Of a stretch of 49,628 bases of DNA, positions 23,738 to 37,874 are shown in pieces. Both the position numbers and the translations under genes were made by a program. The notes beneath the pieces were generated by a model. That model was not told the DNA's origin. It saw only the letters and a program-made list of their open reading frames with translations, and did no database searches. The stretch comes from a phage: sequence record PZ721903.1; one strand, given 5' to 3'. Every line of letters starts with the position of its first letter. Positions within the stretch are counted from its first letter, which is position 1.

Positions 23738-24151
23738 ATGCATATTATCACTGGAGAGATCCGAAAAGAACCTAAGATTCTTGAACGTAACGGCGGGAAT
23801 ACTTATATAATCGAACTGGCAGAGAGCTACAAGCCTCGAGATGGAGATCGAGAATACACCAACTACACATTCTTTTTTAGCGACGGTGGAAAGCCTGGCC
23901 TTGCTGACTGGTATCGTGAAGCATTCCAGGTTGGTCGCGTCGTATCAGTATCATGCGAGACGTTGAAGATCTCATCCCGTGAACACAATGGAACGGTTTA
24001 CAATTCATTGCAGGCCGCTGACTTCCCGAAGTTGGTATTTAGTCAACGAGGACAAAGCAATCAACAACGAGCACCGCAGCAACAACAGCGAACGCAATCA
24101 CAGCCACAGCCAAATCCTCAATCAACTTTCGATGATGATATCCCGTTCTAA
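23738..24151 (+). CDS. ssb: single-stranded DNA-binding protein
   Basis: 137 aa OB-fold-sized protein with Gln/Pro-rich tail ending in the acidic SSB signature DDDIPF. Confidence 0.85.
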   Translation: MHIITGEIRKEPKILERNGGNTYIIELAESYKPRDGDREYTNYTFFFSDGGKPGLADWYREAFQVGRVVSVSCETLKISSREHNGTVYNSLQAADFPKLVFSQRGQSNQQRAPQQQQRTQSQPQPNPQSTFDDDIPF

Positions 24152-35070: not shown

Positions 35071-36639
35071 TTAACCCATCAGCCGAGGATTAATGAAAAC
35101 AATATCATCAATCCGGCAAGTGTAGTTCATCTCTTCGAGCGTGATAAGAAGACTATCGATTCGCTCAGATACTTTCTGTTGACCGTTGAAAGGCGTAACG
35201 TTCCGGCACTTTGCAACGATGCTATGAATAGGTGCGCGGCCTTTGTTTTTCTTCGCGATCTCAGTGATAACATCAATCAGCTTACGAGATTCAGCCTCAT
35301 CACCAGCATACCCGGCAGCGCTGGCAGACGACAGATAAGTCCTGGAAAGCTCATTGAAGATCATGATTGCTTCCTGCATTGTTTCAAGGTCAATCTCACG
35401 GTTGGAACGGTTCGGTGATTCACCCTCCCAATTCTTGATCGTGTGGAGAACTGAAGCAATACGCAAGGCGTGCTTATCGAACTTGCCGAGATGACCGCGT
35501 AGCATTGAGTGAGAGTATTTCCCACCTGCGGCGAAATCCGGTTCCATCGCCTGACGCGCAAGGTTTAATTCACGCATAGCATTACGGCTTACAGAGAGAA
35601 CAACGTTTTCCTCCTTCATGATGTTGTGAACGAGTCTGTAATATTTGCTAACCAGTCCTCGATCGACTTCTTTATACAATGCATCACCATTTTCATCACA
35701 AAGAATACGAGTACCTAAAAGCGGTTCCTCGCGAACTAACAGGAAGCGCTCAGATACACCGATACCTCGTTGGCCTGCGTCCATGATACCTTTGATTGTT
35801 TCATCCTGCGCAATTACGCAGATCGAGCCAACCGGGCAAAGAGACAAGTTGTTGTCCTGATTGGAGCGAGCGACCTCCATATGGTTTTTATCCCACGCCT
35901 TAAGAATAAGCTCACTGTTAGATTTCTTATCTGAACCTCCATACGTAAGACCGAGCAATGTATTGATTGCCGTTGCCTCATCAGAAATTACGGAAAAGTG
36001 GCCCTGAACAGCGGCTACTTTCGCAAGACCTTCAGGTGTAGGATCTGATACAGCAAAAACAATATCAGCCATCTTTTTGATCTTCTCTTCCAGTTTTTCT
36101 TTGTCCTCGTATAGTGCCGCAGTCGTGTTTCCTTTAGGATCATTCTTGATTTCCTTCTCAACCTGGCGTAGCTGACTGGTTAAACGAATACGTTCCTTTT
36201 TGCGCTCTTCATTCAGTCGCTGAATCTCCGCACGCATAGGTGTAATCGCCGCTGAGTTAATCGCGGACTTACCTGTTGATGGTGGCTGGCTGATTACCAT
36301 GTAAAGCGCGGTCGGCTGTTCCTCTCCGTGATATTGCACCCAAAACTTCCCGAGCATCGCGGCTGAGATGCAACCTATAAAATGAGCATACGCGGATGAA
36401 ACCGGGAACTGGACTGATTCAGCTTTTGCTTTTGCATATTCGAATACCAGGTTATCGCCACCTAACGAAATCAGAGGGAACTTATCGTTGCCGCTATTGA
36501 TATCGATCGGATCTTGCCAAAATGAAACTGAGTCACCATAGCTGTTTTCACGAATTGCGATCGCCACCGGATTAACTCCAGTGCTATTGGCGATCTCAAT
36601 AATCTGTTGGTAATTCAGTTTTGGCTTAATATTAAACAT
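35071..36639 (-). CDS. P-loop NTPase (putative replication-associated ATPase/helicase)
   Basis: Start at MFNIKPK behind RBS aaggag; Walker A-like SQPPSTGKS; 522 aa. Confidence 0.45.
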   Translation of the reverse strand: MFNIKPKLNYQQIIEIANSTGVNPVAIAIRENSYGDSVSFWQDPIDINSGNDKFPLISLGGDNLVFEYAKAKAESVQFPVSSAYAHFIGCISAAMLGKFWVQYHGEEQPTALYMVISQPPSTGKSAINSAAITPMRAEIQRLNEERKKERIRLTSQLRQVEKEIKNDPKGNTTAALYEDKEKLEEKIKKMADIVFAVSDPTPEGLAKVAAVQGHFSVISDEATAINTLLGLTYGGSDKKSNSELILKAWDKNHMEVARSNQDNNLSLCPVGSICVIAQDETIKGIMDAGQRGIGVSERFLLVREEPLLGTRILCDENGDALYKEVDRGLVSKYYRLVHNIMKEENVVLSVSRNAMRELNLARQAMEPDFAAGGKYSHSMLRGHLGKFDKHALRIASVLHTIKNWEGESPNRSNREIDLETMQEAIMIFNELSRTYLSSASAAGYAGDEAESRKLIDVITEIAKKNKGRAPIHSIVAKCRNVTPFNGQQKVSERIDSLLITLEEMNYTCRIDDIVFINPRLMG

Positions 36640-36694
36640 CACAATAAACTCCTTGGTTGACGGTGTAAATGATACACCGCCAATGGTACACGCG

Positions 36695-36712
36695 TTTTGC
36701 AAAAAGTGCTAT
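36695..36712 (-). promoter_or_regulatory. palindromic box copy, leftward
   Basis: ttttgcaaaaagtgctat; overlaps the stop of 36716..37132 and precedes the P-loop gene. Confidence 0.55.
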
Positions 36713-37132: not shown

Positions 37133-37195
37133 TGCGTTAGCTCCTGATTGGTTATCTTGAATAAGGTCACTTTATCAAATGACCTTACGGCAATA

Positions 37196-37212: not shown

Positions 37213-37425
37213 TTACCAGGGAATATAATCGTCGTCGTCATTATCACCAGTATCATCGCCTGGCATATCGAAGTCGGGATTATATTCACTTTCTGCGTCC
37301 ATATCCATATTCCCTAGCGCGTCGTCAAGCGTAATTTCTTTATATGCAACCTTGATACACCATTCCGCACCAAGCCCGGCATCGAGCGCTGCAAAATAAC
37401 GAGTCCAGAAATTATCCTGTTCCAT
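37213..37425 (-). CDS. small highly acidic protein (candidate DNA mimic)
   Basis: 70 aa with about 22 Asp/Glu, ending DNDDDDYIPW; RBS tggag. Confidence 0.5.
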   Translation of the reverse strand: MEQDNFWTRYFAALDAGLGAEWCIKVAYKEITLDDALGNMDMDAESEYNPDFDMPGDDTGDNDDDDYIPW

Positions 37426-37428
37426 TAA

Positions 37429-37653
37429 TTAGCTCCATGAATTAATGTAAATCGAGTTATCCTCAAGCGTTGCGCGAACATCCGCATCTGTTGCATTTAT
37501 CAGTCGAGATCCCGGCACACTTCCGATAACGCTATTTCCGTTACGCGTCTTAGTTACCGTCATTGAAATAAAACCGGAAGACTTATCCATCTTGATAACT
37601 ACACGGCCTTTTGCGTTAAGATGCTTGATGATATTCTCAACTTTAATGCTCAT
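37429..37653 (-). CDS. hypothetical protein
   Basis: 74 aa ORF behind a cassette and RBS aagga. Confidence 0.5.
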   Translation of the reverse strand: MSIKVENIIKHLNAKGRVVIKMDKSSGFISMTVTKTRNGNSVIGSVPGSRLINATDADVRATLEDNSIYINSWS

Positions 37654-37714: not shown

Positions 37715-37731
37715 TTAGCAATTAGTGCTAT
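37715..37731 (-). promoter_or_regulatory. palindromic box copy, leftward
   Basis: ttagcaattagtgctat upstream (on the - strand) of 37429..37653. Confidence 0.55.
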
Positions 37732-37874
37732 CAGTACTCGGAAATTACTTGGCACTCCTTGATTGTTCCACCTAGAACTACTTTCTGCATCATTGCTTTT
37801 TGGTGACTATCGTAAACGCGAACATTTTTTACGCTGTTAAATTTGCCAGTATAGAAAGTGTGAATATAAATCAT
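37731..37874 (-). CDS. small hypothetical protein (47 aa)
   Basis: ATGA overlap with the stop of 37871..38191; stop codon lies in box copy 37715-37731. Confidence 0.25.
   Translation of the reverse strand: MIYIHTFYTGKFNSVKNVRVYDSHQKAMMQKVVLGGTIKECQVISEY

Follow-up and report, generated by a model that had tools for sequence, protein, structure and literature searches.

The window analysed here, all 49,628 nucleotides of sequence record PZ721903.1, is the complete or near-complete genome of a T1-like siphovirus (Drexlerviridae, Tunavirus), and a short gene on its minus strand raises the question of what a phage does with a 70-residue protein so rich in acidic side chains. An earlier note had suggested a DNA mimic directed against host defences. 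The reading frame exists as that note described it, with 70 residues ending DDTGDNDDDDYIPW (full sequence, MEQDNFWTRYFAALDAGLGAEWCIKVAYKEITLDDALGNMDMDAESEYNPDFDMPGDDTGDNDDDDYIPW; coordinates of this and the other features discussed are collected in Table 1). The surrounding 3-kb region is 97% identical to Escherichia phages phiD2-2 and vB_EcoS_SH2, and the SH2 orthologue, gp71 (HOR79_gp71), is annotated 'hypothetical protein'. The protein belongs to PHROG 9085, a family of unknown function, and a Pfam search with it returned no match. That the frame is a real gene follows from its 63 close protein clusters, all from T1-like phage contigs, from its presence by tblastn in 456 phage records (Escherichia, Klebsiella, Shigella, Salmonella, Citrobacter, Enterobacter and Cronobacter phages), and from a dN/dS of ~0.16 (pairwise Nei-Gojobori, six orthologues); the gene is under purifying selection. 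In every annotated record among the matches listed it is labelled hypothetical.

Table 1. Positions in the window of the acidic-protein gene, its parts and the neighbouring or related features.
Feature	Position	Strand	Remarks
CDS, 70-aa acidic protein	37213..37425	-	stop codon 37213-37215
N-terminal three-helix domain, residues 1-39	37309..37425	-	predicted helices 6-15, 20-27, 33-39; most conserved part of the family
Acidic motif MDMDAESE, residues 40-47	37285..37308	-	directly after helix 3; M40, M42, D43, E45, S46 nearly invariant
Acidic linker, residues 48-66, YNPDFDMPGDDTGDNDDDD	37228..37284	-	variable in sequence and length; no predicted structure
SSB-Ct-like tip YIPW-COOH, residues 67-70	37216..37227	-	invariant in Tunavirus-type homologues
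GGAG Shine-Dalgarno	37433..37436	-	7 nt 5' of ATG; inside 3' end of upstream 74-aa gene
Upstream 74-aa gene, PHROG 4344 (unknown function)	37429..37653	-	stop codon 37429-37431
DUF3987 helicase	35071..36702	-	same operon, two genes downstream; synteny conserved across Drexlerviridae
Phage SSB, 137 aa, ends STFDDDIPF	23738..24151	+	PHROG 44, E = 2.8e-23

The gene sits where the earlier note had placed it, in a leftward operon of small genes and behind a ribosome-binding site of its own. Because the GGAG lies 7 nt from the ATG (37436-37433) and the 74-aa gene stops 3 nt ahead of it, we assign the gene its own site and consider the two genes to be probably coupled in translation. The 74-aa gene is syntenic in other branches of the family, and divergent Drexlerviridae share the whole order: the 74-aa PHROG 4344 gene, the acidic-protein gene, a methylase gene in some, a 138-aa PHROG 2684 gene, the DUF3987 helicase gene and a 135-aa PHROG 2794 gene. 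The label 'early' is only positional, taken from the location in this small-gene operon with the DUF3987 helicase at its end; a scan for promoters and terminators gave sites no more numerous than in shuffled sequence. Other genes of the phage specify a RecE-like exonuclease, an Erf annealase, an SSB, a primase, an SF2 helicase and a VRR-NUC nuclease; the SSB gene adjoins those for Erf and the RecE-like exonuclease. The annotation of SH2, the 97%-identical relative, lists no gene for a DNA polymerase.

The description of the protein as very acidic was borne out by calculation, with a pI of ~4.05 and a net charge of ~-17.5 at pH 7. The figure of about 22 acidic residues was slightly too high: there are 20 (15 Asp and 5 Glu) against 3 basic ones (2 Lys and 1 Arg), and the protein is hyper-acidic all the same: of the 139 ORFs in the window that start with ATG and encode 50 aa or more, none is as acidic. 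The C-terminal 35 residues hold ~-13 of the net charge. Acidity extends throughout the family, in which net charge ranges from -4 to -20 with a mean of -13.7.

How this charge is distributed became clear from structure prediction and from the family alignment. In acidic and Cys-knuckle branches alike, AF2 predicted three helices followed by ~30 residues without structure, with the tip not packed on the domain. For the protein studied here, residues 41-70 were predicted to be without secondary structure (pLDDT ~57), a result that is not in itself proof of disorder; the indels that occur in the linker support a disordered tether. The conserved N-terminal domain spans ~40-45 aa, is all-helical by AF2 prediction and acidic by calculation, and is possibly UBA-like, UBA, CUE and the EF-Ts N-terminal domain being three-helix bundles of that kind. 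The close Tunavirus-type homologues show hardly any change in residues 1-46, differences of both sequence and length across the acidic stretch, and no change at all in the terminal Y-I-P-W.

The same pattern was found at greater distances. A profile search covering 1.84 billion representative proteins matched only 27 clusters in its first round. Short full-length cluster members keep the N-terminal domain, F.R...A.DAGLN.EW..KVA....TLD.ALGDMDMD.ES, and are followed by linkers that cannot be aligned, some acidic and many with a CxC...CxxC knuckle; nearly all of these proteins end in IPF, IPW, LPF or FPF. Relatives at or below ~50% identity still terminate in one of these four tripeptides, and most of the distant clusters terminate exactly in IPF. 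After the second profile search the collection comprised 143 sequences, whose tips were IPW (70), FPF (40), IPF (14), IPFW (6), LPF (3) and MPF, EPF and ISF (1 each). In ~95% of these family members x-P-[F/W] is strictly C-terminal, and an SSB-like tip was absent only from fragments and from three longer fusion proteins. A further motif, G-[DN]-M-[DN]-M-D-x-E-S, is among the best-conserved parts of the family, including the branches whose linkers are not acidic. By contrast, only the IPW (Tunavirus) branch has a dense run of acidic residues immediately ahead of the tip: the seven positions preceding the tip hold a mean of 4.2 acidic residues there versus ~1-1.6 in the Cys-knuckle branches, in which basic residues are also present before the tip. 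Because the acidic run is branch-specific, the elements under selection are the N-terminal domain, the MDMDxES motif and the C-terminal tripeptide, not a pattern of carboxylates.

These observations bear directly on the proposal of DNA mimicry, in which the polyanionic C-terminal half would occupy the nucleic-acid-binding surface of a host protein and inhibit it. Its target might be a defence nuclease, of the type I RM or another kind, a nucleoid protein or, through its OB fold, host SSB. Ocr and Arn, both small acidic phage proteins, are well-established mimics of DNA. Acidic SSB tails, for their part, are reported to compete with ssDNA for OB folds, and the T7 gp2.5 literature reports ssDNA-mimic behaviour of such tails. 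Such precedents speak for the proposal, as do the strongly negative charge of the protein and its family and the position of the gene in an accessory operon whose small genes include one, Gp54 in Bas11, with a product that interacts with a defence system. Like Ocr, ArdA, Arn and Ugi, the 70-aa protein is small, very acidic and encoded among accessory genes. However, those proteins carry their carboxylates on a folded scaffold that imitates B-DNA, whereas here the charge lies in a variable, indel-rich segment predicted to be unstructured rather than on a rigid scaffold with phosphate-like spacing, and the conserved element of the tail is hydrophobic. Structure prediction, which the earlier note had recommended as a check for DNA-mimic charge patterning, went against it: AF2 gave no folded acidic scaffold with conserved carboxylates in a DNA-like array, a result that is prediction-based and not definitive. 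Neither sequence nor fold similarity to Ocr, ArdA or Arn-type mimics was found. Moreover, the BASEL study reported high sensitivity to RM systems, including those of type I, for most Drexlerviridae (PMC8594841), so that on this indirect, literature-based evidence carriers of the gene do not appear protected from type I restriction; the gene occurs throughout the family, also in BASEL phage Bas12 (bas12_0050), and an Ocr-like function is argued against. DNA mimicry would also leave the hydrophobic C-terminal tip, the most conserved feature of the tail, unexplained. An Ocr-like mimic is thus poorly supported, and we regard mimicry of DNA or ssDNA in general as quite unlikely, although a looser, electrostatic role of the acidic tail as an ssDNA mimic is conceivable. 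What probably survives of the original idea is mimicry directed against a host protein; DNA as the object mimicked probably does not, the conserved features being a helical domain and a tip.

The sole published claim of a Drexlerviridae 'DNA mimic' that we found concerns a different gene, ORF71 of phage 2019SD1, whose published label of 'putative anti-restriction DNA mimic' came from an HHpred match with a probability of 24% and E = 28; we consider this annotation unsupported. A 47-aa ORF of the window (37731-37874, minus strand), beginning MIYIHTFYTGKF, resembles by eye the N-terminus of 2019SD1 ORF71, which begins MIYIHTYGIGKF.

The tip itself suggests a different reading. The SSB tip, on which SSB-interacting proteins dock, is recognised by I-P-F after Asp residues at a free C-terminus (DDDIPF; PMC5872125; PMC10143822). 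In the 70-aa protein YIPW is followed directly by the stop codon, leaving the alpha-carboxylate free; I-P-W matches the hydrophobic-Pro-aromatic tripeptide of consensus I-P-F, and the preceding DNDDDD supplies an acidic run, with Tyr at -4. In the Cys-knuckle branches this acidic run is lacking. The predicted disorder of the linker, together with its indels, likewise agrees with a tail of the SSB-Ct type. Only 2 of the 324 ORFs of at least 40 aa in the window end in [ILVM]-P-[FWY], and these are the 70-aa protein and the phage's own SSB. The resemblance to the tail of SSB (...MDFDDDIPF) comprises an acidic, predicted disordered segment and a terminal hydrophobic-Pro-aromatic element. The differences are Trp in place of Phe, Tyr in place of Asp at -4, the Cys knuckle that serves as linker in sister branches, and an N-terminal part that is not an OB fold but a ~40-aa acidic three-helix module without a Pfam match. 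An assignment of the protein as an SSB (PF00436/PHROG 44) was accordingly rejected, there being no Pfam match, a predicted all-helical fold instead of an OB fold, and an acidic domain.

E. coli SSB-Ct combines a proximal DFDD contact segment with the distal DIPF (PMC10143822). Upstream of its tip the 70-aa protein has a conserved D-P-[DN]-F-[DE] element (PDFDM), whose likeness to the proximal segment is suggestive only. Separately, the G-[DN]-M-[DN]-M-D-x-E-S motif faintly resembles the MDFDDD segment of E. coli SSB-Ct. At its C-terminus, behind a Q/P-rich linker, the phage SSB has a DDDIPF tip that matches the E. coli type perfectly; the protein had no Pfam SSB match at E <= 0.01 and no PDB sequence match, and appears to be a divergent OB-fold SSB that retains the docking code of the host.

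Could the tip instead be a signal unrelated to SSB, such as a degron or chaperone tag, a structural cap for the zinc knuckle, or a ligand for an unrelated host hub, for example the beta-clamp or the proteins that bind the FtsZ tail? For an SSB-Ct, the IPFW and FPF variants and the Cys knuckles are unusual, and the C-terminal peptide of FtsZ contains D-I-P-x-F. However, the tip has neither the Q-L-x-L-F consensus of clamp ligands nor the IPxFL spacing of FtsZ, AF2 does not pack it against the domain, and both its strictly C-terminal position in ~95% of members and the exact IPF of most of the distant clusters fit such signals badly. We judge them very improbable.

We also asked whether Trp is acceptable as the last residue of such a tip, by scanning IMG/VR contigs for the back-translated sequence D-D-D-I-P-W-stop. 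The scan returned at least 120 matches, where chance would give ~10 by a rough hand estimate, and 117 of the 120 matches listed sit at the end of an ORF. Among the matches listed, 20 of the 95 non-redundant DDDIPW proteins match the Pfam SSB family PF00436 (best E = 1.7e-38), and further ones belong to Enc34-type, gp32-like, SSB_1 and DUF669 ssDNA-binding families. With at least 20 distinct Pfam-confirmed SSBs ending in DDDIPW, Trp at the last position, and so IPW, is a natural variant of the SSB tip. A 587-aa viral primase-helicase with DnaB_C and Toprim domains (L082:2801-4561, minus strand; IMGVR_UViG_3300012953_003312) ends in DGDDDIPW; here a replicative helicase-primase carries an SSB-type tip in cis. 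Phages thus also place such tips on replication proteins other than SSB. The majority of the 95 non-redundant proteins (L009-L128, among the matches listed) had no Pfam match at E <= 0.001. Recurrent families among the matches listed include proteins of 75-100 aa (for example, MQYDNTNSGVLFKNE..., weakly DUF736-like) and of ~240 aa (...CAEWQKKP...MDDDIPW). SSB-type tips seem to be grafted onto many unrelated phage proteins, which suggests that grafting of this kind is a wider phage strategy.

On this evidence we favour, at a probability of roughly 45%, the reading that the 70-aa protein is a free-standing mimic of the SSB tail whose tip docks in the SSB-Ct pocket of a genome-maintenance protein, or of a few such proteins, of the host (or phage). 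Several of the results above argue for it: YIPW is invariant while the linker before it varies; the IPF of distant relatives is identical to the SSB tip; among 324 ORFs only the phage SSB shares such a C-terminus; IPW is a natural tip that is also found on non-SSB replication proteins; the AF2 layout is that of an SSB tail, with the tip not packed back; and in the IPW branch ~4 of the 7 residues that precede the tip are acidic, with a D-F-D further upstream. Counting against it are Trp for Phe and Tyr for Asp at -4 relative to canonical SSB-Ct, the Cys-knuckle branches with few acidic and some basic residues before the tip, and the six IPFW members, which would bury the Phe carboxylate that SSB-Ct pockets normally read. 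Extended to the whole family, the proposal is that Drexlerviridae encode a stand-alone SSB-tail mimic, a UBA-like module bearing an SSB tip that plugs host SSB-docking pockets, for which we would offer similar, slightly less than even, odds.

In mechanistic terms, the N-terminal domain (residues 1-39) probably serves protein-protein contact or oligomerisation, and a flexible polyanionic linker would join it to the tip, ...DDDD-Y-I-P-W-COOH, which copies both the acidic run and the hydrophobic-Pro-aromatic-carboxylate signature of SSB (DDDIPF). The partners of E. coli SSB include ExoI, RecJ, RecQ, RecG, RecO, PriA, Pol III chi, DnaG, UNG, RNase HI and Topo III. The tip would insert into the SSB-Ct pocket of one or a few such partners, and the outcome that we favour is a decoy: through competitive occlusion, host nucleases and helicases that SSB stimulates would be denied access to the ssDNA intermediates of recombination-dependent replication, which the RecE-like exonuclease, the Erf annealase and the phage's own SSB would generate. 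The layout of domain, linker and tip, the pattern of its conservation, the match of the motif to SSB tips and the synteny are seen in the sequences; docking into SSB-Ct pockets, the leading candidate targets (ExoI, RecJ and RecQ) and the decoy outcome are what we infer. The N-terminal domain could add second-site specificity or multivalency. Selectivity has to be assumed, because the phage depends on its own DDDIPF-tipped SSB and would itself be hampered by an indiscriminate decoy.

A decoy is preferred for three reasons. The gene looks accessory, the phage SSB already gives an authentic handle, and a mimic of one partner would be free to drift from DDDIPF, as the tip variants show. On the first of these points, phage SA32RD (OL960578.1; L001:4215-4424, minus strand) is informative. 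Codon 2 of its orthologue is changed from GAA to TAA while the remaining ORF is intact and 94% identical, and because of this stop codon no gene is annotated at the locus. If the stop is not a sequencing error, the allele is a natural null carried by a viable isolate and hints that the gene is dispensable in the laboratory. The stop fits an accessory host-modulating factor better than a core part of the replisome.

The main rival to the decoy is an adaptor, which we think unlikely, though less so than the other alternatives weighed here. The tip would again dock in SSB-Ct pockets, and the N-terminal domain would bind a phage replication protein, such as the DUF3987 helicase or the primase; this partner would gain an SSB-like handle in trans, and host factors (the chi-psi arm of the Pol III clamp loader, PriA or DnaG) would be tethered to the phage replisome. 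The strong conservation of the N-terminal domain is what a dedicated partner interface would show, and it is equally compatible with an adaptor and with a decoy. The absence of an annotated DNA polymerase in the close relative SH2 and the DDDIPW tip carried in cis by the viral DnaB/Toprim primase-helicase also favour an adaptor. So does a precedent in phage T7, where the acidic, Phe-terminated tails of gp2.5 and of the gp4 helicase-primase dock on a basic patch of T7 DNA polymerase (PMC12339929); the gp4 tail thereby places the same type of tail on a non-SSB replication protein. Like the tail of the 70-aa protein, the tails of gp4 and of gp2.5, the T7 SSB, are polyanionic and disordered and end in an aromatic docking element. 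In T7, however, the tail belongs to an enzyme and its tip is D-F, whereas the present case is a tiny stand-alone protein with a bacterial IP[F/W] tip, and a cognate phage DNA polymerase was not found among the annotated genes of SH2. The conserved synteny with the DUF3987 helicase across Drexlerviridae branches points towards an adaptor as well, but it reflects conservation of the whole operon and is not specific to an interaction. Two further results weigh against an adaptor: the phage SSB already provides a canonical DDDIPF handle, and the apparent natural null of SA32RD suggests that the gene is dispensable.

A third use of the same tip would lie entirely within the phage. It might compete with the tail of the phage SSB for the Erf annealase, the RecE-like exonuclease, the primase or the helicases, and so time or limit recombination and replication without touching host proteins. 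The DDDIPF-tipped SSB is indeed encoded next to Erf and the RecE-like exonuclease, and stimulation of a phage annealase by its cognate SSB is documented for Sak4 of HK620 (PMC5928155). However, phages whose replication modules are very similar differ in their tips (IPW, FPF, IPF, IPFW), and it would be unusual for 456 genomes to keep a self-inhibitor. We therefore hold such a regulator to be rather improbable.

The SSB C-terminal tip is a hub that recruits more than a dozen bacterial enzymes of replication, recombination and repair. Docking of SSB-Ct on its partners and viral mimicry of motifs are both already known; our literature searches found no description of the 70-aa protein, of this mechanism, or of a stand-alone SSB-tip protein that does not bind DNA, an absence from the searchable literature that is not proof of novelty. 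If the mimic is real, it would be, as far as we found, the first case of a virus encoding a decoy or adaptor for the SSB interactome of bacteria, would mean that viruses exploit the SSB hub by short-linear-motif mimicry, and would reveal which host enzymes a T1-like phage must block or borrow. The tip is also an antibiotic target that is being pursued with synthetic SSB-Ct mimetics (PMC10143822, PMC5872125). If the reading is correct, the tip variants (IPW, FPF, IPFW and the IPF presented by a Zn knuckle) would be natural SSB-Ct ligands, possibly of higher affinity or selective for a target, and the evolved Trp and Zn-knuckle-presented tips would be leads for selective or high-affinity inhibitors. 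The analysis gives a gene carried by hundreds of Drexlerviridae genomes a concrete and cheaply testable functional hypothesis.

Several minor observations concern the operon and its relatives. Some relatives carry a gene of the Pfam Gp54 family a few genes upstream in the same operon (L003:4819-5016, L005:1892-2092 (+)); Gp54 of Bas11 is the trigger of CapRel-SJ46. No match to Gp54 was found among the small ORFs of the window, and the accessory gene content of the operon therefore differs between Drexlerviridae branches. Just 3' of the stop codon, at 37163-37186 on the minus strand, lies a 7-bp inverted repeat (AAGGTCA / TGACCTT) with a 10-nt loop and no T-run after it; the equivalent position in SA32RD, which differs in one base of the stem, is annotated as a terminator. 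This repeat may form an RNA-processing or attenuation hairpin between the genes for the 70-aa and 138-aa proteins. In Shigella phage vB_SsoS_008, the 98-aa called protein P0063 combines C-terminal sequence of the 74-aa protein with the N-terminal ~43 residues of the acidic protein; this fusion is probably a frameshift or annotation artefact, and it highlights how tightly the two genes are coupled. Finally, ~20 records labelled 'Campylobacter phage', with C. jejuni as host, carry the Drexlerviridae gene at ~58-60% identity (MG065673, MG065636 and MG065643 among the matches listed, 29-50 kb); these look like T1-like coliphage genomes, and their host label is doubtful.
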